Shown in pieces: positions 2,567 to 63,685 of a stretch of 64,000 nucleotides of DNA. The stretch comes from Leucoraja erinacea (Eukaryota), in NCBI RefSeq assembly GCF_028641065.1, contig NC_073377.1:101618001-101682000 (forward strand). The letters run 5' to 3'. The notes beneath the pieces were generated by a model, which saw nothing but the letters and a program-made list of their open reading frames with translations, had not been told where the DNA came from and searched no databases. The stretch's first letter is position 1. Each line of letters starts with the position of its first letter. The translations under genes and the position numbers were made by a program.

Positions 2567-3236
2567 TCTATATAACTAAAAGTCTCATCCTGTCTGCACT
2601 GTATATTGATTTTAGAAAAAGCACTACCATATATCGCTATGATTGCTGGCCTTCTTACTCAGTCCTCCTCCGCTGAGGCAACCCCGAGGATTTTTCCGAT
2701 CGATTAAAAATAAAAAAGTTATGAATGTTTAAAAAAATCTTGAGATCAGCTGTTGCTCCTCTCGCCTGTCAATCACCAAGTAAAGGTAACGCCCCTTCTG
2801 GGAGGGGCAGGACTATAATACCCCGATAGCCTGGACATGAATCAGTCACTCTAGAAGATCGCAAGGGAGAGGCCACAACTGTGATTCTAAGCTGTGAATC
2901 AACTAAACTGTGAGTCTACAACGTACTTGCAATAAATTATTTGTTAGCCCTTAATGACAATGCAATGAGTTGCTTGGCCTGCCCTGCCTGTGCTTGAAAT
3001 TGCAATGCAAAATTGGAAATGAAATGAAAATGCAGTGAGTTGTTTGGCTGGCCCTTGAAATGGATTAACTTGACTTGAAATGGATTGTTGGCCCTGCATT
3101 CACTGTGCTTGACTTGACCCACAACATCCATGCTAGCACTCCAGAAAGCTCCCCCGCACCGACCACCAATAATGGAATTGGTGGAGATGTAGAAAATTGT
3201 CTTGCGGGACCAGCCCTCTTGTGTGAACCTGGGACT
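2567..3236 (+). mobile_element. Non-autonomous Helitron (3' tip lost)
   Basis: A|TCTATATAACTAAAAGTC start. 3120-3236 matches the reverse complement of 52430-52540 but stops before the hairpin/CTAG. Confidence 0.75.
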
Positions 3237-4503
3237 TATTAAAGTTGGCATCAAACAGGGACACTGATCATGCCCCGTGCAGTGTAGAGAGGTATCTAAT
3301 CGTTATTTCTAAATGAGTATCAATGAACAAGTTATTGGTAGAATTTTGACTCATCACTCCTATGTTATATATAACTAGGAATTACTGCATTACATCGATA
3401 ATGATGGAATGCATCAGTACGAGATGCATGAGATTTCATTCAGTTATTAATTAGTGGTGGAATCAAAAGTTCACGCCATCTCTAGGTTTTCTACCTTGTG
3501 CATTCATTTCTAGCTCTTGGTTCTTACCAACGTCTGGAACCAAGCCACGAGAACAGATACTGACAAAAGACAAAACACTTCAGAAGTGTTTATGGATCTC
3601 ATGTGTCCACTTATGACAATCATGCTGTGACCAGACCTAACCCAACGATCACTGTAGGAGCAAAATGTGAAGGCAAGGCAAGCATACAGACTATGGATCG
3701 GAAGAGGCATTGAAATAAGAAGAGCTCCAAGAAGCAGAAGAAAATATTGAATAATCGTGAAATCGGAAATAAAACAGAAAATGGTCCTCAGGTTGGACAG
3801 CACTAGAGAAAATGTTTCTATCTCCCCAAATGCAAGAAATCGATGAGGTTAGGCAGCGGATTTTACAGATTTTATTTATAAGGCATTTATTAAAATCCTC
3901 CATGGTATGATGATCCTGAAGATGGTGTTGACTTACTGATAGAAGATAGAGGTTGTGACAGAAGGACAATATTCAAGATGGAGGTCTCTGAGCAATGGAC
4001 TTCTGCATATTGGGACTTCTGCTGTTTATGATATAGATATATAGATATGAATTACTTGGACGTAAATGCAGATGGGTTAGTTAGTAAATTTGCAGATTAT
4101 ACCAAGATTACTGGAGTCGCATATTGTGGCGAAGGACATCAAAGTATGCAGCGGGATATAGATCAACTACAGAAATTAGCGGATAAATGAAAGAGAGTTT
4201 AATCCATGCAAGTGTGGGATTAAATGAAGAGGACAAGTAAATGAGGCTCTCAGAGCAAATTCGAAACGTTTTGAAAAGGAGGTACCCAGTGAATGGTAGA
4301 AAAGTTTAAATCTCTGGTAAAATAAAGACCCCAGATTACAGAGTTTAGGGGTCAGGAGATCATGCACAGCATTTCCTGAACTTCTATTCCACCTAAGACT
4401 GTACCTTGATGTCGCGCAAATCATTTATTTCTCCTTTTTCAAGTTGTAGATCCAAATTATAAATGACATCTGTTGTTGGAAGATCAAATTTAGGTATAGT
4501 TAC

Positions 4504-18648: not shown

Positions 18649-18901
18649 TCAGTATTTTGCCGAGGAAATCAGTATTTTTACACGGTGCCATTTTGCTGGA
18701 TTTTTTTTTTTTTTTTTTAAATGTGCAGTCATACCCATGTAAGAGTACAAGAATGCATAACTTTGCTACCAATTGACATGTCTTCTACGCACTTTACTCG
18801 ACAGTGCATTCATTGCCTTCTCTTTGTATACTGCTGTTTGAATGGCTGCTTCCTGCTTTTAGCACCAGATGATGATGTAGAAGCCATTTTGGAAGCCACC
18901 C

Positions 18902-26113: not shown

Positions 26114-26544
26114 TATATCTATATATCTAGTATATCTATATACTTTTAAAATTGTGTGTGCATGTGTGTGCGTGCGTGTGTGTGTGTGGTTTTGCATGTG
26201 AAACGTATCTCCCCCTCCCTCTCTTTGGGGGCTATGCGTCAGTGGATAGGGCGGTTATGGGGTAAAAGGAGCAAGTTAATAATATTAACATAATATCAAG
26301 GGGGGTAGTCAGCACAAGTTCAGAAATCCACTCCTTGGTCAATTATTTCCCCCAGATTTTGAATAAAAATGTTCACCAAACTCAATTTTTAAAATATAAA
26401 TGCCGCTTGCCAGTTGCTGACATCACAATGCCCACATGCACACAATCCAGGCCCATCTGCCTCCTGGCCCCAACTGGGCTCCCCCCGCCGCCGCCGCTGT
26501 GGCTTAAAGGCGCAGAAAGATCAAGAAAGTTCTGCAGAACAAAG

Positions 26545-28110: not shown

Positions 28111-31071
28111 TTGCCTTTGAAATGCACCTCCCCATGAAAACCAAACGCGGAAACGGGGAAATGTTTACATATTTCGGTAGATATTTTCCTTATGATTTCA
28201 AAAATCCACTCCTCCGTAAATTTGGTGAATTATTTCCAAAGATTTTTATGATAATTGTTCACCAATCTGATGTTTTTTTCGAATCTGACCTCTGGGCGGC
28301 TGCTGAAGTCACAATGAGGGTAAAATATTTGCATATTCTGGATTATAAAAATCCACTTCTCTGTAAATTTGGTTAATTATTTCCCGAGTTTTATACTAAA
28401 ATTGATCACCAAACTGACATTTGAAAAAAATAATAAAATAGCCGCTGGCCAGCTGCTGACGTCACAATGCCTTTGTCCCCCGCGACCAGCGGCGCAGACT
28501 TTCAATGTGCAGCCAGTTACATGGATTGAAGCCCGTTAACATGTGATCAAGTCGTCCAGCGCGCTCCGCTGGGTTTCTTGAAGTTCAACAACATGGTGGC
28601 GGCGGTCGTTATTGCAGAAAGAACGAGCAAGTTCTGCAGTTCCCGAGGTCACCGGTTCACCGGCTTGCTTTTGAAGAACTCGCACGGCCGGGCCGCTCGC
28701 AAGACCTTCGAAAAAAACCACGCAGTCTGCTTGCTCCAGCTGCCGGGAGCGAGTGATTATTGCGTTCAAGAACCAGCCCTCACCTCTGACAATGCATTTC
28801 CCCCCCCCCCCCCCCCCCCCCCTCCCTGCCTCCAAGTGCCTCTCTGTCCCGCTCCCCACTACTCTCCTACGCACCACCTCTCCCCCCCACCCTCTCTCTC
28901 TCTCTCCACCGCTCCTATCTCCGTCCCCTCTCTCTCTCTCTCTCTCTCCCCTGTGTGTGTGGGGGGTGGTTAGTGTGCGTGTGACGCCACTGACCCCACC
29001 CCCCCACCCACCCACGCAGAGGGAACGGTTCCCCCCTGGTCTAGTAACTTATCAAACTCTGGATGTTCGCTTGTGCGGATGCTTGCTTTCTTGCTTCAAC
29101 TTTTTCTTTGATTCACATCTCCTGGAAAACCTGACCGGTAACGGTGAAATCTTTACATATTCTGGTAGAGATTTACCTCGTGATTTCAAAATCCCCTCAT
29201 CTGTAAATTTGATTCATTATTTTCCCAAGTTTTTTACTAAAATTATTCACCAATCCGAGGTCTTTTTAAAATCTAACGTGCTGAAGCCAGCTGGACGATG
29301 TCACAATGCCTTTTCTCCTCACGACCAACTGCGCAGTTTTGAACACGCTGCCGGCAGGGCAATGTTTTCCAGGAGTGACGTCATCACCTCCACCCCCCCC
29401 CCCTGTTCTTCAAAAGACGCAGAAAGCACGAGCAAGTGGGCTCTGTTCTGCAGATCAGAACGGCGCTTCCAAGAGCTTCAGAGCTCTTCCAAGTTCACCC
29501 GAGGTCACGGGTGCTACGGAGCTTCCCGGCTTGCTTTTCAAGAACTTTTTCTCCTCGCGAGTAAAGTCACCCCCCTCCCCCCCCCCCCCCCCCCCCCCGC
29601 TGCTAACCGCTCCTATCCTGCTACTACTCCCCCGCTGCTATCCACTTCAACCAGGTTTCCAGAGAGATGGAGAGTGTCGGGCCTTGTACTCTCTCCCTCT
29701 CCCTGGGCTCCCTCCCCCTGCTTCTCACTCGTCCGACTCCCCTCACCTCTCCACCCCCTCCATTTCTTTCCCCCCTCCTCACTCTCCATCCCCACTACCC
29801 CCCTCCCTTCCCCCCACTCCCCCTCCCCTTCTATCTCCCCCTCCACCCTTCTTCCCCCTACTCTCCCCCCCCCCCTTCTTCTCTCTCCCCCTACCCCCTA
29901 CCCACCCTCTCCACCCCCCCGCCCCCCCCCCCCCCCCCCCCCACCCCCCCACACTAGGACTCTCCCCCTTGATCTAGTATAATATAAAACTCTGATCTTG
30001 GATGTTTACTTGTGGGGATGTTTGCTTGAACTTTTTCTTTTGATTCACATCTCCTCGAAAACCCGACGCGGTAACGGTATAATGTTTACATATTCCGGTA
30101 GAGATTTAACTAATGATTTAAAAAAATATCCTCATCTGTAAATTTGATTCATTATTTTCTGAGTTTTTTACAAAAATTGTTCACCACTCTTAACTTCCTT
30201 TTAAAATCTAACGTGCTGGATGACATCACAATGCCTTTGTTCCTCGCTGCAAGCTGCACAGAATTTTCAACGTGCAGGGGCACTGTTTTCCATTGGCTGC
30301 GAGTTACGTGGTCCAGCTGCCCTCCCCCCCCCCGGCTCTGGATTAAAGCTGAAGAACACGTGATCAAGTCCTGGACAAGCGCAGTGGAAAAGTGGCCGTG
30401 GCTGCCGTCACAGGGGACGACCTCTTCTCGGTCTCCCCCCCGATCGTCTGTCACGCTGGTGGGTGTGCTTACCCTTGCGGAAGCCACGATCGGCCAGCCG
30501 TCCGTTGCTTTTCACCGTCCTCAGATTGCTCCGGGTCTCGCTCTGGTCCACGACGGCCGCAGCCTAGCTCGGGCACAACGCCTGATGGGGAGGCCTGCTC
30601 TACGACCTGGGTAGGTGCTACCTCCACCCCTCCCCCTCCCCGGGCGCAGAGAAAGAGAAGGGGGGGGGGTGGTGGGGGGGAAGGAGAGAGGGTGGAGAGG
30701 GGGGGGGGGGGGGGGAGATGGAGAGTGCTGCACACGGCTGTGGCATGCAGCAGACACCTGAGCCGGCTCACGGACTCGCCAGCCGCCCGCCACCTGCGCG
30801 GGAGGAAGAGACCACCCCCCACTTGCACATGCAGCAGGAGGTCGAGCACTCCGTTGATAAAGTAGTCAACATGTCAAACTGTCAACATAGGCAGTCCCCG
30901 ATTGTGTCAATACTCGCACTCGGCCGGACGTTCACAGCGCAGCGCCCCCCGCCCCCCCCCATTCCCCCCCCTCTCTCCCCCCCCATTCACCATCTCTCCA
31001 CATCCACCTCCCTCCCTCCCCACCATCCTATCTCCCCCTCCCCCCCTCTGCCCCCTCCCCTCTGGCCCTCA

Positions 31072-31449
<378 letters not shown>

Positions 31450-36157: not shown

Positions 36158-38430
36158 TAGAAACATAGAAAATAGGTGCAGGAGTAGGCCATTCGGCCCT
36201 TTGAGCCTGCACCGCCATTCGATATGATCATGGCTGATCATCCAACTCAGTATCCCATCCCTGCCTTCTCTCCATACCCCCTGATCCCTTTAGCCACAAG
36301 GGCCACATTTAACTCCCTCTTAAATATAGCCAATGAACTAGCCTCAACTACCTTCTGTGGCAGAGAATTCCACAGATTCACCACTCTCTGTGTAAAAAAT
36401 GATTTTCTCATCTCAGTCCCAAAAGATTTCTCCTTTATCCTTAAACTGTGACCCCTAGTTCTGGACTTCCCCAACATCAGGAATAATCTTCCTGCATCTA
36501 GCCTGTCCAACCTCTTAAGAATTTTGTAAGTTTCTATAAGATCCCCCCTCAATCTTCTAAATTCTAGCGTGTACAAGCCGAGTCTATCCAGTCTTTCTTC
36601 ATATGAAAGTCCTGCCATCCCAGGAATCAGTCTGGTGAACCTTCTCTGTACTCCCTCTATTGCAAGCATGTCTTTCCTCAGATTAGGAGACCAAAACTGT
36701 ACGCAATACTCCAGGTGTGGTCTCACCAAGACCCTGTACAACTGCAGTAGAACCTCCCTGCTCTTATACTCAAATCCTTTTGCTATGAATGCTAACATAC
36801 CATTTGCTTTCTTCACTGCCTGTTGCACCTGCATTCCTACATTCAATGACAGGTGTACCATGACACCCAGGTCTCATTGCATCTCCCCTTTTCCTAATCG
36901 GCCACCATTCAGATAATAGTCTACTTTCTTGCTTTTGCCACCAAAGTGGATAACCTCACATTTATCCACATTATACTGCATCTGCCATGCATTTGCCCAC
37001 TCACCCAACCTATCCAAGTCACCTTGCAGCCTCCTAGCATCCACCTCACAGCTAACACTGACCCCCAGCTTCGTGTCATCCGCAAACTTGGAGATGTTGC
37101 ATTCAATTCCCTCGTCCAAATCATTAATCTATATTACTAAAAGTCTGTTCTTGACTGGTTTTGGCCATCTGTGCTGCGATTTCCAAGAGAACGCCGCCAC
37201 CTACGGCCATCATTTTTGGCCAATTTACTCAGAACCCCCCTCCGCCATATGTGTGCCAAGGGTTTTTCCCGTCGATGAAAACTGACAGAGATATTAATGA
37301 TTTTACAAAATTCCCGATTCTCTCTGCTGCCCCAACTGGTGTCAGGGGGGACGGACTATAAAACAAGGAAGTGGTGTGCCTAAATCAGTGTCTGCAAGCT
37401 GGAGGAAGGCAGAGGGTTACATTTCTCTGAGCTGTGAATAACACTGAACACATGTCTACTCAAATGTAAGTGTCCTTAGTGGTTCTAAAACGCTTGCAGA
37501 ATGTGTCTATTGGTTCTAAAATGTTTGCAAAAAGTGTTTATTGGTTCTAAAATGTTTGCAAAAATTGTCTCTTTTGGTTCTACAATGCTTGCAGAATGTT
37601 TTTTTATGTTCTCCCCGCCCCTCCCCCCCCCTCTTTTTCCCCCCCCTCCCCCCCCATTCCTCCCCTAAACCCCCCCCTCCCCTCCACACACCCCTACCCC
37701 CTTCCCTCCCCCCCTCCCCTCCCCCCTCCCCCCTCCCCTCTCAGCACACCCTCTCCTCTCCCTCCTCCCTCCCCTCCCCTCCACCCCCCCCTAAACCCCC
37801 TTCCCTCCAACCTCCCTCCCCCTCCCTACCCTCTCCCTCCCCAGCACACCCTCTCTCCCCCTCCCCGCCCACCGTCCCCTAAACACCCTCCCCACCCACC
37901 CCCCTCTCCCCCCACCTCACCCCCTCTCAGCACCCCCTCTCTCTCCTCACCTCACTCTCTCTCTCTTCTCTCCCCTCCTCACCCACCCTCCCTCTTATCC
38001 TCCTCTCCACCCCCCTATCCCTCTTCCCCCTCTGTGTCTCTGTCTCTCTCTCTGCCTCTTCTCTCTCTGCCCTCACTCTATACCCCCGCCCCCCCCCCCC
38101 CCCCCCCTCTCTAAAGGGGACTGCAAGCTGGGGGCTATGCGCCGGTAGAAAGGGTGGTTATGGGGTAAAAGGAGCAAATTAATAATATTAATATAATATC
38201 AAGGGGGTCATTAGCGGGGGGGGGGTGAATAGTTAGTATGTGACGCTGCGTGCCGCCCCCCCACAACCGCACGTTGGCGGAACAGACCCAACGGGTCTGC
38301 ACTTGGTCTAGTATATATTGTAAATAGCTGGGGTCCCGGCAATGAGCCTTGCGGTACCCCACTAGTCACTGCCTCCCATTCTGAAAAGGACCCGTTTACT
38401 CCTACTCTTTGCTTCCTGTCTGCCAGCCAT
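36157..38430 (-). mobile_element. CR1 LINE 3' part, interrupted by Helitron 37128-38311
   Basis: ORFs 36247-37119; LINE sequence resumes exactly at 38312. Confidence 0.92.
37128..38311 (+). mobile_element. Non-autonomous Helitron inserted in a CR1 LINE
   Basis: Begins TCTATATTACTAAAAGTC and ends with hairpin cagaccc-aac-gggtctg plus CTAG. Sits between A and T with no TSD. The paralogous CR1 at about 32755-32770 shows the empty site tcattaa|tatatattg. Confidence 0.9.
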
Positions 38431-40537: not shown

Positions 40538-41134
40538 TCAATGCACAAGTTCTTACTTGTATAGTAATCCATTACACTTTAGCTTTTTGTTTGGAAATCC
40601 AACAGCAACAAATGTACTCGTTCCTTTCATCTAGCTTGCCAGTTACATCAAAGAATATTAATAAATTAGATATGCATAACTTCTAGTAGATAAAATTAGG
40701 CTGATTCTGCATAATTGTGTTATGATTGTCTTAACATTCTGCCTCTATTTACTGAACAATGGATTCCAACATTTCTCAATGACTGACATTAAGGCCAAGT
40801 GGTCCAGTTTTCTGTTTTGTCTCCCTCTTTTCGTCAATTCACAAGTTCTTACTTGTATAGTAATCCATTACACTTTAGCTTTTTGTTTGGAAATCCAACA
40901 GCAACAAATTTACTCGTTCCTTTCATCTAGCTTGCCAGTTACATCAAAGAATCTTAATAAATTAGATATGCATAACTTATAGTAGATAAAATTAGGTTGA
41001 TTCTGCATAATTGTGTTATGATTTTCTTAACATTCTGCCTCTATTTACTGAACAATGGATTCCAACATTTCTCAATGACTGACATTAAGGCCGAGTGGTC
41101 CAGTTTTCTGTTTTGTCTCCCTCTTTTCATCAAT
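40538..41134. repeat. 296-bp tandem duplication
   Basis: 40538-40833 is nearly identical to 40834-41129. Confidence 0.95.
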
Positions 41135-47220: not shown

Positions 47221-50099
47221 CCTGTGCCACTCGCCATACTAGCCACAAAAAATAATGTACTCAAATTCTTTACAAACCCTTTGACAGTAATACATAAAGT
47301 GTCCACAGGAAACCAACTTCTATCAAATGACCTGAAACTATTGTTTAAATACATACTAAAAGAGGCCATATCCCACTTCCATTTCAACACTGCTCCTTGC
47401 ACTGAAAACAAATCAAAAACCTTGTAATAGAATTGGTCACAGACTTTGACATGGTTGCCAATACAGTACAATATGTAAAGTGTGATTGGGGAAATTTTGA
47501 ATCCTTGGACAAGGAGGAGTGACAGGAAAAAAAGCTCTAATATGGGAGGGAAAGCAGGGAAGCAAGAGAACTGGCAGGTGTGTTGGGAAGATATTAAGCC
47601 GGTATGCAGACCGGCTGCGGGAGGCAGTGCAGTGCCTCAACAGTGGAGCGGGTCGCTGGAGGCCCTGCAACATTCTTGTGCTCGGCTGGACCGGGCGCCG
47701 CTCCAGTAGGCAAAGCACATGGACCGGGCGTGGCCGACAGCATTGGAACAGCCAAACTTGGCCAGGTTGTAATGCCACTAGGACAGCAGACCTTCATGTG
47801 GGTCAGGTCACAAACCCTGCACTTATAACTGGGACTTGAAAATTGTGCCAAACTGACAACTGCATACTGTCTCAGTGTACTACTGCTATACACTTGTACT
47901 GCATCTGAAATGCTTCTCTCATATGTATCTAAGTGTACAAAACTATACAAAAATTTCACTGTACCTTGGTGCACGTGACATGTAAAGTATCATACACCCT
48001 GTAAAGTATTAGAGGGGGCTCCCAGAAGATTCTCTAGTTTTATAATCAAACATCGGATTATACAATATTTGATATAAATTGACATTAGCAGCAAGGTAAG
48101 TAACAGCATAACAAATTTGCATTAAAATAGCAAAATATGTCCAATCATACTGAAAACACACGGTGCTCTGAAAAATGATTTATTTCCTGTATCAGGTGCT
48201 CGTCAAGCATTGAATGCAACCATCACTGTCGCTGCGAGTTACAAGTACCTCTGCCTCATTCTTTAACGATGGAAACAGAATAATCATAACCCACAACCAT
48301 TAAAACAAAGAGATAGTTTTGCTCTCACTTAGACCAAAACTTTGTGCATTTGAATGAATTTAGATATCATCTGGTATGTAACTAAAGGTTACATAAAAAT
48401 AAAATAAACTAGTCGAGTGCTGAAGACAAATTGGCAAGCCTCCACACACCAGGTGGATCACTTTGGAAAAATAACAAAAACACTTAACTAGGTGCTCAAA
48501 TTTGTGCAAACTAGAACATCATATTAATACAGGGCATTGATGTTGTAACACTGCAGAGTTAAATGACTAATTGAAGCTATCATGCAAAGAGATAAGATAC
48601 CAATACCTCATCAAAGGATAGGATAAAAGAGTAGAAAGCTCAGTCAATAGGATCTTAAAAGGAGCATTGATTTGTGCATGTAATTTCAACATGTTACCTA
48701 AGTGTGAGTATGTAATACACTGCAGACAAGACTAAAATGAAGACCATTTCATCTAATCAATGGGGCAAAAGAAACAGAATATATATTACTGAGGGAGGTC
48801 TTGTACTCAAGTGTGCTGGCACAGGAAGCAAGGTTGTAAGTGCAAGTTTTAAGCAAGCGTATGATATGTCTAGATGCATGTCTGGTGGTAAGCCAGTCAT
48901 AAATGCTTTGGATATTTGAAATCTTGAGCAAAAAACAAACTGCAAGAGGAACTCAGTGGGGTAGGCAGCATTTGTTAAGGGAAATGGATAGACATTGTTA
49001 AGGGAAATGGATATCCTTTTTCAATCTGCCCATTTTCCTTCACAGATGTTGCATAAGAGAACCAGAATTCCTCCAGTACTGATTTGCTTTCCCATCGAGG
49101 GGTAATTTTGGGGGTTATGGGACAAACATATGACACAGCCACATTTATGTTGCAACATTAACAAACAGGACAGAATTAAGAAATAAAGTTGGACAGAATA
49201 GTATGCCAAGTTTTTACAACAGCCGGGTTAACTATAAACTAATCTTTGCATCAAGGTACCACTAAAATCACTTTAATCTAAAACACAACTTTCAACCACA
49301 CTGTGTAACATGACACCAAAATGTTGAATAAAAACAAATGTCTTAATTTTATTGATATAGGTTTGAGGTAACATAACGTATGAAGAGCTCTAATTTTTAA
49401 TTGACTGAAATACAATGTTACATACACTTGTCACTGTATGTACTATGCACTGCTCTACACTGAAATGGTGTAACAAGTTATGATTTTGCCAAATAAGCTA
49501 TTTTGCACACAAAAAAATATTATACTTGCCACAAAAGTGCTAGCATAAACACTGTCAATTTCTAGTGATCAGATAATACATTTAGATGCAACTGGGTTTA
49601 AGGGAGAGAAGTGTCGGAACTCTCGTAAAGTAAACTTAACAGGCCTTATACGCAACATACAGTACAAAGAAAAGTCCAAAGCATTTTTCTACTTTATAGT
49701 AGGTTTGAACTATTATTGCGTTATTTTGCAGTGCCAGGGATGCCTCCAGCCCACCCCATCACACATTTCACATAGGTTAAAACGTTTTGTAAGTTTGATG
49801 TGTACGTGTTGGCCTGCAAAGAAAACAAAAACTGAAATTTGTCACACTTACATTAAGACACACGGCTGGCTAAGGGATCAAAAGAAGACAGCATTAAAAT
49901 AAAATTCTACACCAGAACAAAGTGGGCAAACGACTACAAAAATGGGAGGAGGGGTGACACTATCATGTTGAGTGGGGTATCTCAAGTTCAGAGAGTGCAG
50001 CACCGTGAGCCATTACCCTACTTTTAAACCTCTGGCTGACCTTTTTAAGAGTAGCTCGTCAGTAGGTAAACAAATACACGCTGGGAATGAAACCGAGAG

Positions 50100-51070
50100 C
50101 CTTTCCTGGAGGGCGCCGACGTGATGGGGTCGGGGTTTGAAGGCTGCCCACGGACGGGGCAGTGACTCCTCGGATGGGGATGAGGATTTGGCGATGGGGC
50201 AGAGACCCCCTCGAACCCGCACCCTCTCGCTCGCCCCCTCCCTCAACTGTACAAAGCCTCGGCCAACACGCCCACCCACCATTCCGCTGCCCACCCGACC
50301 TACCCTCTGCGATCAGCTCCTCCACGGTCACCTGGTAACGTCCCACGCTGAACACCCTGCCCACATAGTTGCCAGCGCTGCCCGCCGACGAGCCGCCGCC
50401 GCCGCCCCCTCCTCCAGCACCGACATATCCCGCTCCCTCGGGTTTCGATATACGCGAGAATTTCTTCATGATTCAAAAGAGAGAAAAAAAAAGCAACGGG
50501 CAACTTCCAGCAGTTGCGCCACGCCAGTCAGATGTTGCCGGCCACTGCTTCCTCTCCTGGCTAACTCGCTCCGTCCGTCTGTCCGTCTGTCGGCCCCGCC
50601 GCCTGCCCCGGGCCGGGCCGGCGGCAACTGCGCAGGAGGTGCCGGGCGGGCGGGCGCGCTCCCCCTCTTCCCCTCCCCTACCAGCCCAACGGCATCGCGT
50701 TCGGAACGGTTCAAACGGCTCGAAATTCCATCCCGTTGAAAGTTCGGAGCGAGCTCGGGGTGTGGCGCGCCCGTTGCTGCGTGAGCGAGCAGTGCAGAGC
50801 AGAGCCAGGCAATGTTAGTGCTTGTGCCGCGCTGCCTGCACGTCCGTCGCTCTAGTCGCCCAGCGATCTCTCTCTTTCACCCACAACCGACCGAAGATCA
50901 TAGATCTTTGCCCCACAACCCGCCCCGACCTGCCAGCCTCCCAACATCACCCCGCGCCCATTGGTCGGCCCGCCTCCCCACCTCCCGCCCCCTCCGGACA
51001 TCTTTGCCGGTGGTTGGCTCGCACCGTTGTCAGTCGCGCAGCCGTGGTTGAGCTTCGTTCCGCCGTCAAG
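50100..51070 (-). promoter_or_regulatory. CpG island / BMP2K promoter and 5' UTR
   Basis: GC- and CpG-rich block spanning exon 1 and about 600 bp upstream of the ATG. CCAAT on the minus strand near 50960 (ccattgg) and GC boxes (cccgcccc) around 50920-50990. TSS position not determinable. Confidence 0.8.
50304..50469 (-). CDS. BMP2K: BMP2K coding exon 1 (ATG, Gly-rich N-terminus, start of kinase domain)
   Basis: Translates MKKFSRISKPEGAG...GRVFSVGRYQVTVEELIAE-G, matching the BMP2K N-terminus as I recall it (MKKFSRMPKSEG...VFAVGRHQVTLEESLAEG). Donor G|GTAGGT after 50304; 166 nt, phase 1. Confidence 0.95.
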
Positions 51071-51315
51071 GGGCGGCGATGCGGCGCAGCGGTAGAGTTA
51101 CTGCCTCACAGCGCCGGATACCCCGGTTCGATCCTCACCTCACCTCGGCCGCTGGCCGCACGGAGTTTGTATGATTTTCTCCTGTTTCCTCCTACATTCC
51201 AAAGACGTACAGGTTTGTAGGATAATTGGCTTCGGTAAAATTGTAAATTGTCCCTAGTGTGTAGGATAGTAAGTGGGCCGAAGAGCACGTTTCTGCGTTG
51301 TATTCCTAAACTAAA
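51070..51315 (+). mobile_element. tRNA-derived SINE abutting the BMP2K CpG island
   Basis: gcgcagcggtagag...ggttcgatcc; tail ctaaactaaa. Confidence 0.8.
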
Positions 51316-52169
51316 GCCCTGCGTGACGCGGACGGAGAGCATTGGGTGGTGCTGCGGGGGTTCAACGGAGCGGACGAATGTTGCAAGTTGTTGAAACTGG
51401 CAAAAAAAAACGTCATTGCAAAACCAAGCAAGTAGGTGTTTAAAATGCTCGCAAGCACGCGAGCTGATGTCTTCAGAAACATGGTGGGCGTTTATTGCAG
51501 TGGGCGCCCACTCGCCATCGCCCAGGAAAGTTTTCATAACTTCATACAAGTTGTAATTGAAAGTTACCACAGAATTTAAAAAAAAAAACAGGCAATAAAA
51601 CTGAAATATATTTTCAAAACATTTGATAACTTTCCAGTAGTGGCTGCAAGAAGATGACATTTGGGAGATTTGCGTGTTTATTCTGCTCAGGGGATTTTCC
51701 GTTTACCACTTGGTAAACCACAACGACATATTATGCAGATTCGTAGAGCAAAGTTCTGTTGTGGTGTGTTTTACTACACATGATAATATCTGTGACTAAT
51801 CACAGCACTGTCTGGAAAAGTTGGAATTATGTTTCCTGATAGTATGACAGAGAAATCAGTCTGACACAGCAGCAGGAGTTGACCAGCTGGTACCTGAAGC
51901 CTTTATGAGCCATTTGATAAAGTTATGCTGAATCCCAATTCCACATTCATGTATACCGCCGGTAAAATTTCATCTATCAACATCTCCTTAAGAGTAACCA
52001 AAGATTCTCTTAAAGAGAATCTCTCTGTTTCCTTAAAATCCTATTTTTTAAAAGTGTTCCTTGCCCACACGAGGAAACACCTGCATATCCACCCAATCAA
52101 GCTAAAGATCTTGTATTATAATCATCCCTTCTGGGCAGTGATAACAACTTTTTACAGCCCAGGTCATCA

Positions 52170-52400
52170 CCAGCTATGATCACCCCACCATCGAAAGGAT
52201 CTATCATAGTCGCTGCCTCAAAAAGGCAGCCAACATCATCAAAGACCCACACCATCTGGCCACACGTTCATCTCACCACTGCCATTGGGAAGAAGGTACA
52301 GGAGCCTGAGAACCGTAACTTCCAGGTTCGGGAACAGCTTCGTCCCTACAGCCAATAGGCTATTAAACACTGCAACATCATAACCTATGAACTACAATAG
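52170..52400 (+). mobile_element. Rex1/Babar-like LINE 3' fragment
   Basis: RCLKKAANIIKDPHH...GRRYRSL...RFGNSF-type C-terminus. Confidence 0.65.
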
Positions 52401-52627
52401 ACTACTAGACTAAGTGGGACCCGTTGGGTCCCATGTTCACACGGGAGGGCTGGTCCCCCGACGCAATATTCCACCTCCACCAATTCCAATATTGGTGGCC
52501 AGTGGGGGGGCTTTCTGGAGCGCTGGTATGGGTTCTTGGGGTGGCAGCTCAGTCCCTCAAGCCTGATGTGCTGGCAGTTCACTCACGACTGGTGGGCTGG
52601 CAGTTGTCTCATGGCTATTCCTTGAAA

Positions 52628-52860
52628 TTCCATTTCAAGCAGGGTGCAAGGCCACCAAATTCAAATCCATTTTCCAACCATTTCAAGCCATTTTCCAATC
52701 ATTTCAAGCAGGGTGCAAGGCCACCAAATTCAAGTGCAGTTTCTTACCACTTCGAGTATGGTGCAAGGCCACCAAATTCAAGTGCAGTTTCATACCATTT
52801 CATGCAGGGTGCAAGGCCACCCCATTCAAATGCAGTTTCATACCATTTCAAGCAGGGTGA
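52628..52860. repeat. ~48-bp minisatellite (inside Helitron)
   Basis: ccatttcaagcagggtgcaaggccaccaaattcaa units. Confidence 0.85.
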
Positions 52861-53236
52861 AACCACCATAAGACCACCATAAAACCACACAAAACACCAA
52901 ACTCACAGTTCAGTAGACATTCAGTGTGTTCAGTTGATTCACAGCTCAGACAGTCGTGACCTCCCCCTCCCCCGTCATGCAGAGTGAGCCACACCCACAC
53001 TTCCGGGTTTTATAACCCCTCCCCCTCCCACCGGAAAAGGTGTGGCCTTCATGGCGTAATTGACAGGAGAGAGATTCTCAACATTTTTTAAACACTAATA
53101 ACACTTTTGTTTTTCATTGATGGGAAGAATTCTCTGCACCTGCTGAGCGGATGGGGACTGAGTAAGATGGCCAAAAATCACAGCCATAAATTGTAGCGTT
53201 TTATCTAAAATCAATATACAGTGCAAACAGGAAGTT

Positions 53237-53414
53237 ACCCAAACCACCATTTGCAGTAGTGCCTTTTAACTTCAAGCCAAAGCACCCAAACCACCATTTG
53301 CAGTAGTGCCTTTTAACTTCAACCCAAAGCACCCAAACCACCATTTGCAGTAGTGCCTTTTAACTTCAAGCCAAAGCACCCAAACCACCATTTGCAGTAG
53401 TGCCTTTTAACTTC
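53237..53414. repeat. 47-bp minisatellite x~3.8 (inside Helitron)
   Basis: Unit acccaaaccaccatttgcagtagtgccttttaacttcaagccaaagc. Confidence 0.92.
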
Positions 53415-53786
53415 GTTAACAGTGTTATTCAGAGCTCAGAGAGGCGTGACCCTCTGGCTTCCTCCATCTTGCAGAGACTGAGCGAGGCACACCACTTCCG
53501 GGTTTTATAGTCCCTCCCCCTCCCACCAGCAGGGGCAGCAGAGAGAATGGCAAATTTGAAAAAAAACATTAATATCTCTCTGATTGTTTAATGATGTTAA
53601 AAATCCTCCGGTCCCGGAAGGCGGAGGGGGGCTCTGAGCAAGGTGGCCAAAAATGGCAGCTGTAAGTGGCGGCGTTCTCTCGGAAATCACAGCACAGCGA
53701 GCCAAAAGCGGCCTGGCCGAGCACGCGGTAAGAAGTGCAAAGGAACTAATGGAATGCTCACACAGGGCCGGCTCTGATGTCTATCT

Positions 53787-54918
53787 CAATAGACAATAGG
53801 AGCAGGAGTAGGCCATTCGGCCCTTCGAGCCAGCACTGCCATTCAATGTGATCATGGCTGATCATCACCAATCAGTACACAATTCCTGCCTTCTACCCAT
53901 ATCCCCTACTCCGCTATCTTTAAGAGCCCTATCTAGCTCTCTCTTGAAATTATCCAGAGAACTGGCCTCCACTGCCCTCTGAGGCAAACAATTCCTCACT
54001 CACAACTCTCTGTGAGAAAAAGTGTTTCCTCGTCTCTGTTCTAAATGGCTTACCCCTTATTCTGTGGCCCTTGGTTCTGGACTCCCCCAACATTGGGAAC
54101 ATGTTTCCTGCCTCTAGCTTGTTCAAACCCTTAACAATCTTATATGTTTCAATAAGGTCACCTCTCATCCTTCTAAACTCCAGAGTGTACAAGCCCAGCC
54201 GCTCCATTCTCTCAGCCAATGACAATCCCGCCATTCCGGGAATTAACATTGTAAACCTACGCTGCACTCCCTCAATAGCAAGAATGTCCTTCCTCATATT
54301 TTGGGACCAAAACTGCACACAATACTCCAGGTGTGGTCTCACTAGGGCCCTGTACAACTGCAGAAGGACCTCTTTGCTCCTATACTCAACTCCTCTTGTT
54401 ATAAAGGCCAACATGCCATTCGCTTTCTTCACTGCCTGCTGTACCTGTATGCTTATTTTCATTAGGTACACAAAATTGCTGGAGAAACTCAGCGAGTGCA
54501 GCAGCATCTATGGAGCGAAGAAAATAGGCGACGTTTTGGGCCGAAACCCTTCTTCAGACTGAAGAAGGGTTTCGGCCCGAAACGTCGCCTATTTTCTTCG
54601 CTCCATAAATGCTGCTGCACCCGCTGAGTTTCTCCAGCAATTTTGTGTACCTTCGATCTTCCAGCATCTGCAGTTCCTTCTCGAAGACAACGAACTGCTT
54701 ATTTTCATTGACTGATGAACAAGGTCAGATCCCGTTGTACTTTCCCTTTTCCCAACTTGGCACCATTTAGACAATAATCTGCCTTCCTGTTTTTGCTACC
54801 ATAACCTCACATTTTTCCACATTAAACTGCATCTGCCCACTCACCCAACCTGTCCAAGTCACCCTGCATTCTCACAGCATCCTCCAGCTAGTTTGTGTCA
54901 TCTGCAAATTTGCTTATT
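53787..54918 (-). mobile_element. CR1 LINE 3' part, interrupted by fold-back
   Basis: ORF 53950-54507; (caataga)n tail at the left end. Confidence 0.88.
54464..54695. mobile_element. Penelope-derived fold-back insertion
   Basis: 189-bp palindrome 54464-54652 centred at 54558. 14-bp TSD tgcttattttcatt at 54450-54463 and 54696-54709. Confidence 0.85.
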
Positions 54919-56157
54919 TGCTTACTCGAGTTACTCAAGCTACGAAACATCGTCCGCGACCCTCTCCTGGGATCTTCGACCGAACGACTCATGTCACGGC
55001 AAACTCACTCCACCCTACCTACTAGACAACTAGCCAGGCAACTACTAGAACTACAAGTTCGTGCACCGTCGGTGATCCAATCCCAGCTCCAATGCCGCCA
55101 CGACATACAAATAAAATACTATGACAAAACCAGTTCTCCGCTTCAACCGCTCAACAAGGGACAGGTTGGCCGCTTACAGTCACTCAGAGGTTACGACTGC
55201 CTTGGAGTCATTCTGGGGTCAACCGCAGAGCCACGCTCTTACCTTGTCAGTATTGACAATGGTATCTATTGACGAACCCGCCAACACCACCTTCCGGTTA
55301 ATGAACCGGCACCTCCACGTCCTTACCCTGACCAGCCTGCAGGTCTTCCCTCACGCTCCACGAATGCCACCCCAGCGGTTTCTCTACCGGTGCCAGCGCC
55401 ATCCCTGCCTTCCCCGGCGTCTTCTCCTCCGCGTTCACCTGATAAGAGACTTGCTCCCTCAGAGAAGGATGAGGCGCACGAGGGGTAGTACCGTACATGT
55501 GCAGGTCGTGTCTGCAAGCCAAACCCGCTGATTGGAGAATTCACTGGCTTTACTTGAGCTGTGCATGACCTGTTTTGTTTTATGTGCTCATATATGCACA
55601 GGCATGTACAAGTAAAATAAGAAATGCCCACAGCCTATGCTGGTGTTTTACAATATGCTCCACTAACCACTCTATATATGCTTTACTTCTTTAAGAGGAA
55701 GGATGTAGATTAACCCTTATTAATCCCTGCAATTTATAATCTCCACTACACATATATGCATGCCACGCATTACACGATTACGGTACTACACAACTTTACA
55801 CTAACAAGGTCAGCCGGCTCTCACAAGCCACGCCAAGCTGGATATGAATGGCTTGCAGTTCAAATGTTCCAGATTACTTATGGAATAAAGATTGATCTTT
55901 CACTATGTGTGTTGTCATGGATCATTCACAAACAATATCATTCTTTGTTCTGATTGTAGTAGGGAGCAGAAAGCTGGAAGAGAGGTGAGATTAAAGCCTG
56001 GCAAGTGATTGGTGAATACAGGTGAGCAGATGGGGATTGATTATCAGATTGTTGGACAAAGGTCAGAGATCAAAAAGCGAGTTAAGGGTCTGTCCCACTT
56101 AGGTGATTAGTTAGACGATTAGGCTGCTGCCTAGGAATATCTTTCTATATCTTTCAA

Positions 56158-59100
56158 TTTTACTTCGGAGTCACGTGAGTGATTCCGTGAAGAGCCCGCT
56201 CAGCACGCATGCGTGACACATTGCGTTCACGCAGGCAACAGCGACGCAGCGGGAGTCAGGCACTCCCGCTACAAGCCTGAAGGAAAGGAACATTAGGTAA
56301 GTACTTACCTTCAGTTTAAAGTCGGTCTTTGCGTTTGTTTTTGCTCCAGGGGGAGCAAAGCAGCAGAGGGAAGCAGCCCCCGTTCGACTCCAGGGAAGGA
56401 GCCGGCAGTGGAGGGGGGAGAGGCGGCAAAGGGACCGCACACGCTGCGGTCCACAGACACGGGTGCTGCGCTGATGCCCAGTCCGCTAAAACAGCTGTCT
56501 GACCAACAGCAGCGGACTGGAGGGAAATTTAAAAACCGGCCGGCACCCCTGCAGACTCCCGACAAGGAGACTCGTCGCCCGAGAACCGCTGAAATGCCGC
56601 CCGAAAACGGCAGATAGCCTCTAACAGCAAGGTCAGGACCATCCTCGGGCTGGAGACATATACGGAAGATGGGATCAGCACTTCAAACAAGAAACAAGAG
56701 TGTCTGTTTCTCCAAACCCGAGGAAGGTCATGGAGCTAAAAACTCCAGCGAGACTTGCCTCAGGAGCAGGGGCAAGTCCGCCAAGGGAGCTAACACTCCC
56801 ACTCCAGTGCCTAACAGCACTGGCCATCTCCCTTGTCGAGGGATTGATGGGAACCAGAGCTGGGCTGGTCAAGAAGAGGGGTCACTGGCTGAACAACATC
56901 GGGAGTATGCTTGAGGTACAGGATCAGGAAAAGCTGCTGGGTGTGGCCACTATGCGGCTCCACCACTAGCGAGATGGCTTTTCAGTCTCAACTGGTGGCC
57001 AGCTTACTACCTGTTCTTTTCAAAAAACCCTCTCCAAGACAGGTAGTCATGAGGTTTCATCACGCCTCCCCTAAATTGCATTTACTCAGTGCCCACCGTT
57101 ATTGGGGGGTACATTGAGCATAGCTTTTAAAAACCCAAATATCTTAAAATGAATTTGATATCCCTGACGCGGTTATCATTTTCGCATGCTCTTTCCAGAG
57201 GGTCAGGGTAGTATGGCAAAACACCTGACCCTACTGTTCGGAGTGCTCCGCAACTTCTCAGGAAGTTATAAAACCTGCCCTCAACTCAAAAAATTTTACA
57301 GGACTGTGAAAACGCCGACCTCACAACCACAGATCCTGCTGTCTGGCTAAGTTACCAAACCAAGCCTAAAAAACTGGACAAAGTGCCCAAAATATTCGGC
57401 GCAAGAGGGCAGGGTCTGGAATGAGCACCACATGTAAACCAGTCAGCAGTATCTCTAACGCGTCCACCAGGAGGGTCTACCTCATGGTACTGGTGAAAGC
57501 TCGGGGCCTGCATGCCAATCCCGTAAGCCTTTCAGGCCAGGGCCCAGAGCAGGCCCCATGGAAAATGCACCCCCCAACATCACCGCCACGTCAGACAACA
57601 TGCAAGGTATGCACATCGTTGGACCGGCAGGAAACAGAAGAATACCCATAACCATGGAGGTAGGTGGGTCTGGTTCCTACCAACGTATAGAAAATTGGGG
57701 CTTAATACTAACAGGGGGGGGAGATTACACCTGTTTTAAGAAGCACGGGAGTCTATCACAAGTGATCAGTATATACTCAATGGCTTTAGTGGATACAAAA
57801 TACAATTCATACTAGAAAAATTGCCACCAGTTCATCATTTACCGCAGAGGGTATTTTCCCTCTCCGTTAAAGAAACGAGAGGGACAAGCTGAACTGGTGA
57901 GACTAATTACAAAGGGTATCATGGGAAACATGAACCATTGGAATTCGTATTAAATATTCGTCACTAAACCCAAAAAGATGGTGGATGTCGCATCATCATT
58001 GACTTAACTTCACTAAATATGTTTGTTAAGTATATACATTTCAAAATGGAAACGGTTGTTACTGCCAAACAACTAATTTCTAATGGATACTTCATGGCAA
58101 GCATTGATCTTAAAGATGTTTTTCTTTTTCTTTTTTATTTTGTATGGATTTATTGACATTTAATCTATTCAATTAGTTTAATCAATCTCTGTAAAGCACT
58201 TTGGTTATAAGTGATTTTGTTTAAAAGTGTTATATAAATAAATATTATTATTATTATTATTACTATTTAGTACCATTCACAAGGATCATCGCAGATACCT
58301 GAAATTTACCTGGATGGGGCAGCTATGGCAATTTAAAGCGTTACCGAATGGGTTCACATCAGCCCAAGATTATTCACCAAGATACTAAAACCAGCACTGG
58401 CAATATTCACAAGACAAAAACATATTGTCATGGCATATCTTGATGATATCTTAAAAAATAGGCAAGACCATGGAATTGACTATGTTAGCTGTATCAGCTA
58501 CCAAACAGTTATTCGAAACCCTGGGATTGTCTTACATCCAGATAAATCTAAGTTGAAGCCATCCACAATCATGGACTACTTGGGCTTCACAAATAATTCA
58601 GTCTACGTGACTGTAACATTGCCAAGAGACAAAACAGTTGAATTGGCACAATCATGCAACAATTTAATGGTCCACGTACTCCCAACTATTCGACAAGTAA
58701 CAGAGTAATTGGGAAAATGGTAGCAGCATTTCCGGCTACACAATTCGGACCTTTGCACTGTCAAAACTTACAAAGAGCAAAGGTACAGGCACCAAAACGA
58801 CATACAGGTCATTATGATTGTGTCATGAAGTTACCCACTGAAGTAATATCAGAACTACAGTGGTGGGCAAAAAACGTTTGGCATAATTTCAGCCTATTAT
58901 CATCACTAACCCTACGTCAGTTATCCAAACAGATGCCAATGCTCAAGGCTGGGGAGCAACTAACTCTATATCCAGCACAAGTAGTAGATGGACTAACCCA
59001 GAGTCATCGTTACCACTTACACTGGGCATTAATTATCTACAGATGTTGGGTGACTTTTATGGTTTAAAAGCATATGCACAAATATGCATCACTTGCATGT

Positions 59101-61186
59101 ACGGTTACAAATAGATAATACTACGGTGGTGGCCTACATTAACCATATGGGTGGCATAAAATCGGTATCATGCGACAAGTTGGTCAACACAATTTGGCAA
59201 TGGTGTGTCGAAAGACATATTTGGCTATCAGTAACTTACCTGCCAGGTAAGCTAAATACCTGGCAGACACCAGGTCACGTACATTTAATGACAACATCGA
59301 ATGGATGTTAAACCCCAAAAAATTTGCAAAAGTTATCAAGCAATATGGCATGCCAGATATCGATTTATTTGCATCAAGGCTAAATCACCAGGTACCTATC
59401 TATGTTGCTTGGGAACCAGACCCTGAGGCAGCAGCGGTAGATGAGTTCGCGCTGGATTGGGGAAATTCGTCTTCTATGCATTTCCTCCCTTCTGCCTCAT
59501 CAGTTGGGGACTACGCACAATACAAATGCTTCAGGTATTTTGATAGTACCCGACTGGCCTACGCAGCCATGGTTCCCAATACTCCATGACATGGTTGTTG
59601 AAGCTCCGATGGTATTCCCCAGTGACCCAGAGTTATTAACACCCAGTGTCGGGCACAAGCCACCCGTGCCATGAAAAAATCAAACTCCTGGGTTGCAGAT
59701 TCTGCACAAGCCACTTCTGGGACTGGGATTATCAGAACAAACCGTCGACACCATGTCAGTATCCCTCCGAATATCCACTAAAAAACAGCACTTGTCCAGC
59801 ATCAAGAAATGGGAGAAGTACTGCTTGGATACAGGGACCACCTACTAAACCGCTACAGTTACCAATGTACTGGAATTCCTGGCGAACCTTCACCACGATG
59901 AAGGACTCAGCTACAGAGCCATCAACACAGCTAGAAGTGCCCTGCCTGTCTATTTAAAACCAACTCCAGGACAACAGGCCATGGGGTCCCACGTGGTCAA
60001 ACTAATGTAGGGTATTTACTACTCTAACCCCCTAGACCAAGGTACACCCATACATGGGATGTCAGTGTGGTCGTGACATACCTCAGGGGATGGCCACCAG
60101 CCAGATCCCTCAACCTGGAACAATCTATGCTCAAAACACTCATGTTCATGGCACTTGTATCTGCACAGAGGGTCCAGTCACTACACCTATTGCGACTGGA
60201 CAGCATGCTCACAGCTCCAGATCAGATCTCTGTCGTTATCCAGGGACTGATCAAACAGAGCAGACCAGGAACACCTAATCCAGTCGTGGAATTCCGGGCT
60301 TACCCGCCAGAACCACGGTTATGTGCCATGACCCACCTACTATCCTACATAGACACAACCAAAATATTCGAGGGAGATGAAAAGCCTTGTGGGTCAGTCA
60401 TAAAAAACCTTATGGTCGGGTGACGAGCCAAACCATTGCGAGATGGCTCAAGCAGGTGCTAAAACTGCTGGGATAAACACTAACATGTACAAATTTTATT
60501 CCACCAGGGCAGCATCCACGTTGACGGCTAAAAGAATGGATGTCCCTATAGACCACATCCTGGCTACAGCAGGATGGTCGGGGAAAGACCGTTCAGAAAT
60601 CTTATAATAAGCCTTTGGCAAAACCTGTTTTATTTGCAGGAAAGATTTTACGGACTGCAAATATTTAATTTAAGCCCCGGGGAGGGAGCAATTTATTTTC
60701 TTTGTTGTTATTGTTAAAAAATACCATTGTGTTTTTCTACAAACAGATTCATTGGTTGATTACGATAACACACTTCCTCCCTCAAGGACTTCGGCAGTGC
60801 GTGTAGTAATAACTGTTACACGGTTTGAAATCACAGAGCTTTGAAGTCTTCACAGAATCACTCACATGACTCCGAAGTAAAATAGTAAGATTAAACGAGA
60901 ACTTACCAGTTTGAAGTTTGATCTGTATTTTATGAGGAGTTACGATGAGGGATTACGTGCCCTCCGCTCCCACCCTCAATAATATGGGTCAAGCTGATAA
61001 ACTGATGTCTCCTTGTCTTTACTATGTTTACTTCAATAACTGTGTCTATCTGTAATTCCACACCGCTGCTTTGAAGTATGTCGCGCATGCGTGCTGAGTG
61101 GGCTCTTCACATAATCCCTCATCATAACTTCTCATAAAATACAGGTCAAACTTCAAACTGGTAAGTTCTCGTTTAATCTTACTATT
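56158..61186 (+). mobile_element. DIRS1-type tyrosine-recombinase retrotransposon, copy B (near full length, frameshifted)
   Basis: RT motifs (FKMETV, FKALPNGF, MAYLDDIL), RNaseH (TDA..QGWGA, DNTTVVAYINHMGG), methyltransferase-like (DLFAS, FYAFPP) and YR (LALVSAQRV-like, YSTRAAS, AGWS). ICR at 60847-60959; right ITR plus extension 61084-61186. Confidence 0.93.
58119..58260 (+). mobile_element. LINE/SINE 3' tail (L2-like) inserted into DIRS RT
   Basis: tgtaaagcacttt...aaagtgttatataaataaa(tat)n, interrupting the RT between DLKD and YYLVP. Confidence 0.7.
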
Positions 61187-62351
61187 AATTAGGACACCTA
61201 ACTGTGTCGTGATAATGGAAGATGAAACTAGGAAGATCAATGCTGCAGTGTTATCCTGGAATTTCTGGAAAGCAACCTGGAAACTGCTGCAAATGAAGAA
61301 AGGAAAATCGTCAATATGCACATTTAAATTGTGTGTTCTTTTTCATTTTAGGACATTCCTACTTATTCAATATTAAAAGTATTTGAGTAACAAACTTGTC
61401 TAACTAAGAGGAATGATGAAAGGCAAGTCAAGTCAAGTGTATTTGTCACATACACATACAAGATGTGCAGTGAAATGAAATTGGCAATGCTCGCGGACTT
61501 TTGTGCAAAAGACAAACAACAAAACAACCAAACAAATTATAAACACAATCATAACACACAATCGTTCTTATTGACAAAAACCTCTAAGAATTCATTCAAG
61601 CAGTGACAGTGACAAAAAAACTGGACACAGTAGACAAATGTAGAAGACCAGAGAAGGTGAAATAAAATGTTTGCAAAAGACATTAAAAAAAATAGACTAA
61701 AGTAAGGTCATTGAACAAATTATAAACAAGACCAAAGACCTGGAAACAGTGTTTAGGGGGTTATGTCCATAGAAATCAATGAACTGGAGTGAGATGGAAG
61801 GAATTTAATATATTTTTTTAATGATTTAAGGTACAGTGTAAAACTCTGGAGAAAGAATAGAGAACAAGGAAATTTAGAAAATTCCAATTTAATTATTAAT
61901 GTTAAATGTTAGTAAGAAATCTTAGTAAGAAGTCCGTGCATCTCGCAACACAGCACGTTTGCATTTTTACACACGGCTAATGCAGTAATCTCTTTGTGAA
62001 CGTTTATGTCTGATAACAGAGATTAAATTACATTCTTATTTATAATTTAAATTCTATATATTGTGCACAATGTAGATAAGGTGCTAAATGTATGTACCTT
62101 TCATATCTTTCCTGTTACAATGCCACATATCTGATCCCATTACCATTTTAAGCCATGTGTTAGAGAACAGGAAATGACTTTGAGATTACAAGGAAATTCA
62201 ACATCAGTTGTTGAGCCAGGTTGCCAGATACTGATCAGTAGTGATCAGTACATGTTAGACCCCAGTCAGATTTTCTACACCATTAGGTCAATACTCTGGC
62301 TGGTGGCTCCATAGAGGACTGCTACCAAACTTCCTCCTGATAGGTCAGTTA

Positions 62352-62896
62352 AGGGCCTGTCGCACCAACATGCGACTGCATGCGTCTAGTGTGACCAAAC
62401 GTGGTGGCTTGAGGCGTACGGCCTTGCGGGGCTGGTCCACTTCCAACTGCGGAGCTGTCTGGAGTTGTGCAGGGCTGGTCCCGACATCACACTCACCAAT
62501 CTGGGCAGGAGGTGGGCCGACTGAATTTGGACGTCGCACGGCGTCGGGTGGTTACGTCATCACGCAACGACACGCCGGGTGGTGACATCATCGTGTAACG
62601 CCACGTGCTAATCGTACGCCGTCAAGACGCTGCATACGGTGTCGAGACTCTGCGTACACCCGTCGAGGCGCTGCGTACGGCCTCAATGCGGGTGCATGCC
62701 GACAGGTCATTACCGCGCAGAATTTTTGGACAGTGTCAGTTTTTTCGGAGCCCCGCGCGATGTCGGGACCAGCCCCACACAACTCCATACGGCTCCGGCG
62801 ATCGAAGTGGGACCGGCCCCGTGAGGCCGTACGGCTCAAGCGACCACGTTAGGTAGCGCTAGCCACATGCAGTCGCATGCTGGTGGGACAGGCCCT
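62352..62896. mobile_element. PIF/Harbinger-like MITE with long TIRs
   Basis: AGGGCCTGTC...GACAGGCCCT ends, imperfect inverted arms of more than 100 bp, flanks TTA/TCA. Confidence 0.75.
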
Positions 62897-63685
62897 TCAG
62901 TCTTTGACATCTGCATCTGTATTTTGATTTCCACAATTCCCGCTCAATGGATTCATCCACCAAATCCAGTGATAGGAAATAAATGTCCTCAACTGAGTGG
63001 CTGGAAACACTTCATCACTCAGACCCTCAGCATTATGGCCCCAACACATTATTTCAAATGAGTCACCAAACCTTGTTATAAATTTAAGTGCAAGTTATGG
63101 CTTCATTCTTTTTCTTTACTTTATCTTTAAGTCTTTATTTAAAATCTAACTGATTAAAGTATTTTAAAGTACATTTATTTTTGTTATTTCTTATTTTGTT
63201 AATAATTATTTAATTTAGTATTTGTCTGTTAAAACTGTTCCTAAATATCTTGGCTTATCAGAGATATTGAAATCTAGTTAAAGAGATTAAGCAGGGCAGT
63301 AAGCAGTCAAAAGATAAGCAGGGCAGTCATGGAGCTGGGCTTCAAGTTCCATTACTCAAGTCCAAACTGTTGCTCACACCACTCTCTGCCTCAGATGATA
63401 ACCGTAGCATTTAATCTATGGTCCAGTCTATCCCACAAGTGAGAGAAGGGGGGGGGGGGGGGGAGGAGGGGAAGCGGCAACAAGTGCAGGCAGCTGGCTT
63501 GATCAACCATATTGAGTTTGTGAAGTTCATCAATGCAGAATTTTAACTCACCTATACTTAATTCAAGGAAGTAAGAAAAAGAGAGCCAACACTGGTGCCC
63601 TATCATTACAGCATTGTAAAAAACCAATTAGTCCATCATGCGAACACTATACAAGACAAATTCAATCAGTTCTATTCTACAGCTC

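Follow-up and report, generated by a model that had tools for sequence, protein, structure and literature searches.

Four sites around the skate gene BMP2K, at each of which a TATA box precedes an initiator (Inr) by 29 or 30 nt, are copies of one homologous module that begins its TATA box some 230-250 nt in from the 5' end of non-autonomous Helitron transposable elements. The whole stretch of DNA analysed, here called the window, comprises 64,000 nt. Our suggestion, in which belief and doubt are about evenly balanced, is that the module is what remains of a promoter and first exon belonging to the Helitron lineage itself and that it is likely inert beside BMP2K. The array of TATA box, ETS-like word, Inr and splice donor would then represent an inward-facing RNA polymerase II promoter followed by a short first exon. 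This promoter would have driven the RepHel transposase gene of an autonomous parent, deletion derivatives would have retained the module since it borders the 5' terminus that transposition requires, and the pair of heads found upstream of BMP2K would be passengers.

Helitron elements and their common module

By its coding sequence the window covers the 5' half of BMP2K, from the little skate or a species very close to it. The exon-1 peptide (50469-50302, minus strand) is a 100% match to the Leucoraja erinacea BMP-2-inducible protein kinase, the best of 147 matches; a bat as the source of this DNA is rejected on this agreement with the skate protein. A tblastn comparison with the skate BMP2K protein, in which rows below 85% identity were left out, places nine minus-strand exons between 50469 and 1011, and at five exons the window is closer to the L. 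erinacea protein than to that of Amblyraja. Sites A and B (2814 and 37357) are intronic and antisense to BMP2K, and sites C and D (53509 and 53014) lie upstream of the gene on its sense strand (Table 1).

Table 1. Features of BMP2K and of the module-bearing Helitrons (positions in the window; a slash marks a splice or insertion junction; lengths in brackets run from the first T of the TATA box to the Inr A)
Feature	Positions	Strand	Details
Non-autonomous Helitron A	2567..3250	+	intronic, antisense; 5' A/TCTAT; 3' end decayed, end approximate
Module A	2814..2915	+	TATAATA 2814, TCAGT (A 2844) (30 nt), no GGAAGT, ACT/GTGAGT at 2910
Non-autonomous Helitron B, complete	37128..38311	+	BMP2K intron 1, antisense; 5' TC, 3' hairpin 38283-38299, CTAG
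Module B	37357..37471	+	TATAAAA 37357, GGAAGT 37367-37372, TCAGT (A 37387) (30 nt), ATG 37452, donor AAT/GTAAGT 37466-37471
BMP2K CpG island	50001..51201	-	CCAAT 50964, GC boxes 50990 and 50925, no TATA
BMP2K coding exon 1	50304..50469	-	ATG 50469; phase-1 donor G/GTAGGT
Two AATAAA signals	51491..51682	-	at 51682 and 51496; between upstream Helitron and BMP2K island
Composite Helitron upstream of BMP2K	52405..53788	-	gene's strand; hairpin 52433-52415, CTAG/T at 52405
48-nt tandem array	52700..52859	-	3.3 copies; Helitron body
Module D, A-type subfamily	52901..53235	-	TATAAAA 53014, CCGGAAGT, TCACT (A 52985) (29 nt), ATG 52920, donor ACT/GTGAGT 52906-52901
47-nt tandem array	53237..53414	-	3.8 copies, 98%; in place of module C donor region
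Module C, B-type subfamily	53420..53707	-	TATAAAA 53509, CCGGAAGT, TCAGT (A 53479) (30 nt), CAAGATGG 53471-53464; no GTRAGT donor

An earlier note on this DNA had described the sites as Helitron-borne, and this is upheld by the termini, the hairpin and an empty site. Element B begins A/TCTATA, ends CTAG/T and is inserted between A and T in a LINE-like repeat, a 93% identical paralogue of which carries the empty site (A32761/T32762); by comparison with that paralogous site the insertion made no target-site duplication. The 3' hairpin of B has a 7-bp stem (-6.7 kcal/mol, z -2.3) and that of the composite upstream element an 8-bp stem (-8.6 kcal/mol, z -3.7), each followed by CTAG, and the 5' boundary of the composite element is uncertain, with no clean A/TC. 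Element A shares a common tail with the composite element, its positions 3128-3235 being 81% like 52531-52428. In favour of a relic promoter, the module points into the element, its TATA box being separated from the 5' TC by 247 nt (A) or 229 nt (B), and module D likewise forms the head of an element.

The composite element has a more complicated build. In the sequence upstream of the TATA box, C is most like B (138/178) and D most like A (125/168), as against 101/148 to 110/156 across these groups, and in 128 contigs of DNA run X1 a canonical Helitron 5' end stands directly before module D at 53235. In the upstream element, therefore, heads of two different subfamilies are stacked, with the 47-nt array between them. 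The two sites had been taken for duplicated copies, a description that is not quite right, since the 53509 site is of the 37357-type subfamily and the 53014 site of the 2814-type; local tandem duplication of one promoter is thus ruled out.

The family is very abundant, as is marked by the contrast in summed contig depth, itself not a copy number, between the upstream element (about 1e5-1e6) and its unique flanks (15-37) in both DNA runs. None of 70 RepHel proteins, which came from a homolog search with an IMG/VR contig protein and include none named from a vertebrate, matches the window in tblastn. No autonomous partner having been found, the connection of the module with RepHel is one that we infer. 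Rfam gave 0 matches in the window, and pattern scans for copies of the module family gave 0 in the metagenome, viral and genome contig collections. Two IMG/VR giant-virus MAG contigs encode RepHel-type proteins (L001 2120-7123, L002 400-3904), which would represent either Helitrons resident in giant viruses or host sequence that was assigned to the viral bins.

Several other repeats accompany these elements. The tail of Helitron B (37811-38304) is 71% like 27508-27977 and common to other elements, while A and C/D use a different tail; the joining of the B head to the tail of another family is a case of end shuffling among skate Helitrons. A second Helitron-like family forms a head-to-tail cluster at 28111-31247 (plus strand), a location that on the strand of BMP2K is immediately 5' of exon 2, with CTAG ends at 29044, 29977 and 31247, a hairpin at 31220-31236, units 74-77% alike and a related piece at 26130-26520; about 250-290 nt from the start of each unit stands a conserved TCACAATG, often after a CRE-like TGAC(G/A). 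The elements at 14033-18650 and 56149-61186 are related, being 85% alike along 2.2 kb, and both bear inverted terminal repeats and complementary internal ones; by their resemblance we take them to be DIRS-like, the label CR1 for other repeats being likewise our assumption, and a weak RVT_1 match at 58337-58705 is the sole Pfam match among 11 ORFs. A 296-nt tandem duplication in intron 1 (40538-41134), 97% identical, is either recent or an assembly artefact, and 62351-62897 is a CpG-rich MITE-like element with inverted repeats of about 138 nt (84%).

Motifs, spacing and a candidate splice donor

All four TATA-Inr pairs of the earlier note are present with the spacings it gave, as is GGAAGT, an ETS-type word, after the TATA box in three of the four copies, A being the exception. 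The YY1-like word claimed for the 53479 copy also exists, but it occurs in only one of the four copies and continues AGG where the YY1 consensus continues GCG, and as a family feature it is rejected. Copies B, C and D fit TATAWAW and the TATAATA of copy A does not. In the four-copy alignment the TCACT of copy D comes out as TCA with a 2-nt deletion of TCAGTCTCTGC, or a 2-nt deletion of TCAGTCTC, so that it is not clearly a conserved Inr. The copies are paralogues, 70-80% alike (over aligned parts, B-C 80%, A-D 71% and B-D 70%), and they consequently count as one evolutionary event.

How much weight the spacing can bear is then a question of chance and inheritance. A spacing of -30/-31 is optimal for the TATA box in mouse, according to PMC1779604. 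The window contains 112 TATAWAW sites, and at control offsets, with a spacing range two positions wide, TATAWAW is paired with TCA[GCT]T a mean of 0.85 times per window (maximum 4). The earlier note had stressed that the spacing was kept although the spacer of the 2814 copy had diverged; between A and B or C the TATA box (6/7) and the Inr (5/5) are indeed held across a spacer matching at 9/21, which favours constraint, but when the four copies are aligned 102 of the 283 spans of 30 nt are equally constant in length, to within 1 nt. As to whether the motifs are more conserved than their flanks, the TATA box has 6 of 7 columns invariant, a level attained by 17 of 265 seven-column windows against a background of 130 invariant columns in 271 ungapped ones, so that within these four copies it ranks with the best-kept blocks, a rank that it shares with others such as a 14-mer at about +40 to +53. 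The motif pattern is real, and the spacing taken by itself is within what chance or inheritance gives.

These numbers bear on a possible, though on the whole doubtful, alternative, namely that the motifs are chance matches in the AT-rich/G-rich subterminal region of a Helitron, copied with the element and never a promoter. One independent event against an expectation of 0.85 pairs, the many equally length-stable spans, the origin of the D Inr in a deletion, the departure of copy A from both TATAWAW and the ETS word, and the single YY1-like site are all compatible with it, as are the RNA data described below, in which starts do not pile up and RNA does not increase below the TATA box. It accounts less well for the rank of the TATA box among the best-kept windows, for the presence of all motifs in the right order and orientation, and for what lies downstream of the Inr.

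There, counted from the Inr A, both B and D have an ATG at +66 and, at +79, a GTRAGT word that fits the consensus of a splice donor (GTAAGT 37466; GTGAGT 52906), the difference between the two words being a change that keeps the consensus. The BLAST alignment of B with D stops on this donor (37471/52901), and over the 100 nt past it the two copies match at 49/81, close to the 56% (sd 7) seen between unrelated pairs. Both strands together, 128 kb in all, contain 64 GTRAGT words, or about 7% per 150 nt, a frequency to be set beside the fact that the feature was picked after the fact. Copy A has ACT/GTGAGT at +66, which is homologous to the B/D donor in one alignment (with ends forced) and not in others. 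The resulting order, that is, a G-rich box, TATA at -30/-29, GGAAGT, Inr, a 79-nt exon and GTRAGT, is that of an RNA polymerase II first exon, and taken together with the TATA box and Inr the candidate donor is suggestive of a module laid out as a promoter followed by a 79-nt first exon and its donor. The designation of these sites as core promoters is plausible, and gains from the donor 79 nt downstream, but it draws no strength from a spacing within chance or inheritance, and no start was seen. Weighing against a relic promoter are the missing RepHel match and a donor that was noticed post hoc, is absent as GTRAGT from module C and is ambiguous in A. That the module was once a working promoter is what we infer.

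The promoter need not have been the Helitron's own. An ancestral Helitron could have captured a host promoter, first exon and donor and spread them as an exon-trap cassette, as did HelibatN3 of Myotis, which, in passages of PMC4778049, carries the promoter of NUBPL together with six codons and a splice donor, their host origin and activity both shown. The parts list of promoter, few N-terminal codons and donor is the same here, the skate module encoding an ATG plus 14 nt (MSTE/MSTQ), and the ends of the family have been shuffled, as the foreign tail of Helitron B indicates. Such a capture is unlikely, in our estimation: no seam is visible from the Helitron 5' terminus into the module in two subfamilies about 70% alike, the module is not a CpG island (o/e 0.41-0.59), and both ATGs have a pyrimidine at -3.

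The upstream heads, RNA reads and BMP2K

The view that the heads next to BMP2K are probably passengers can be compared with what is found at the gene. Exon 1 sits inside the CpG island 50001-51201, the usual location of the promoter for such a gene, and the island is likely BMP2K's own promoter. The distances from the two upstream Inr sites to the BMP2K ATG are 3010 nt (53479) and 2516 nt (52985), in agreement with the 2.5-3 kb of the earlier note, and a transcript from C or D would cross both AATAAA signals before it reached the island. The donor of module D is in phase 2 from its ATG and BMP2K intron 1 in phase 1, and an earlier ATG of module D runs into a stop; a transcript spliced from module D into exon 2 of BMP2K would thus encode no in-frame kinase, and in-frame splicing is rejected on the phase mismatch. 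Between module D and the BMP2K ATG there are six candidate acceptors, which would make an alternative 5' UTR possible.

Two RNA data sets and two DNA runs were aligned to 50000-53790 at 85% likeness, at which reads from the whole family count. Of the RNA sets, X24 is single-cell and bears the species label of the best DNA run (about 1 in 100 read), and X23 is polyA from a related species (about 6 in 100 read); neither is on record as a 5'-end library, nor is the strandedness of either. Neither set shows a pile-up of starts or ends over 50000-53790, where BMP2K exon 1 itself has a depth of only 0-0.14, so that at this locus the RNA test has no power, and the enrichment of transcription starts proposed for 53479 and 52985 is not seen in these libraries. 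The unique spacer 51397-52158 has an RNA depth below 1 in six of six bins in both sets, and no joint links the module to BMP2K exon 1 among the 15 shown of 345; the loose ends shown were 24 of 3647.

Relative to DNA, RNA does not rise below either TATA box. Per 10,000 of DNA depth it amounts, immediately below the C Inr, to 1.1 and 2.4 versus 4.5 and 3.5 upstream, and to 0.7-1.0 downstream of D versus 1.0-3.8 upstream, with 2.1-4.1 at two other repeats, a pattern that fits passive co-transcription. Together with the extreme depth of the element and the gene's own island it speaks for the heads being passengers. Strand skew in X23 is 3.1-4.0 at and below the C Inr, 2.0-2.3 below D and 1.8-2.1 above C, and in X24 it is greatest above C (4.2-7.3). 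The X23 skew at the C-type Inr could reflect some active copies. It is quite unlikely that very high-copy skate Helitrons have scattered a working unit of TATA-ETS-Inr promoter, 79-nt exon and donor, which would be an exon trap outside bats, and that some copies, perhaps the one 2.5 kb upstream of BMP2K, start chimeric transcripts.

A very unlikely reading is that the two upstream heads have been co-opted as alternative, tissue-specific BMP2K promoters while the intronic copies make antisense RNA, for although orientation and distance fit, module D has a candidate donor with acceptors beyond it, and host transcripts driven by Helitron-borne promoters are described for Myotis in passages of PMC4778049, the gene already has a CpG-island promoter region beyond two AATAAA signals, the phases differ, the upstream ATG of module D meets a stop, C has no GTRAGT donor, the spacer is nearly devoid of RNA (a weak point, exon 1 being near zero too), and with so many family copies some are expected upstream of genes. 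The alternative BMP2K start sites and the antisense RNA suggested by the earlier note find no support; for the start sites this is in view of the island, the AATAAA signals and the phases, and at an RNA depth too low to exclude them, over a stretch that takes in modules C and D.

Comparison with known Helitrons and significance

In their 5' TC, TA-rich start, 3' hairpin and CTAG end, and equally in insertion between A and T without duplication, internal tandem arrays and shuffled ends, the skate elements correspond to canonical non-autonomous Helitrons (HLE1; Helraiser/HelibatN, Heli1Xen1) as these appear in passages of PMC12001565 and PMC4778049; they differ in that the host is a skate and that they are known here without a RepHel partner. 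The likeness to HelibatN3 consists in promoter-like motifs, a short ATG exon and a donor within a non-autonomous Helitron, a possible exon trap when in sense, whereas the putative skate promoter is of TATA/Inr type, directly inside the 5' terminus and common to diverged subfamilies. A second comparison is with elements that bear a promoter of their own. In wheat Feng8, according to parts of PMC13286980, the first 966 bp are an active promoter in a GUS assay and the transposase gene is spliced, and in Xenopus Heli1Xen1, according to parts of PMC12001565, ChIP peaks lie at the presumed 5' promoter. The skate module shares with both a promoter, here putative, that faces inward and lies in the element's first kilobase, but theirs stand upstream of a RepHel ORF and no ORF follows the skate module; a TATA box is not mentioned in the main text on Feng8 (PMC13286980). 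Passages of two further reports concern expression from such elements: in zebrafish those elements that are self-expressed are the younger ones, which agrees with a decay of promoters (PMC9341512), and in Drosophila Helitrons are among the elements that supply gene starts (PMC3530677).

Helitron-borne promoters as such are already known in bats (passages of PMC4778049). A literature search by listings and words found no skate Helitron paper; the HELIANO main text has no mention of shark, skate, cartilaginous or promoter, the main text of PMC9605692 contains neither 'rolling' nor 'transposon', and PMC10468316 has 'Helitron' in a reference only. Skate genome supplements and repeat libraries may name the family. 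In print it may be undescribed; its kind is already known.

What the module means for skate biology depends on which reading is correct. As a relic, or as chance, it would be ordinary repeat anatomy in a genome reported, in part of PMC9605692, to consist of 63.6% repeats. If the module still works, skates would be the second vertebrate lineage, after the vesper bats, with Helitron-spread cassettes of promoter plus donor, on a far larger copy base than in those bats, and the module would point to an uncharacterised core promoter of vertebrate Helitron transposase genes.
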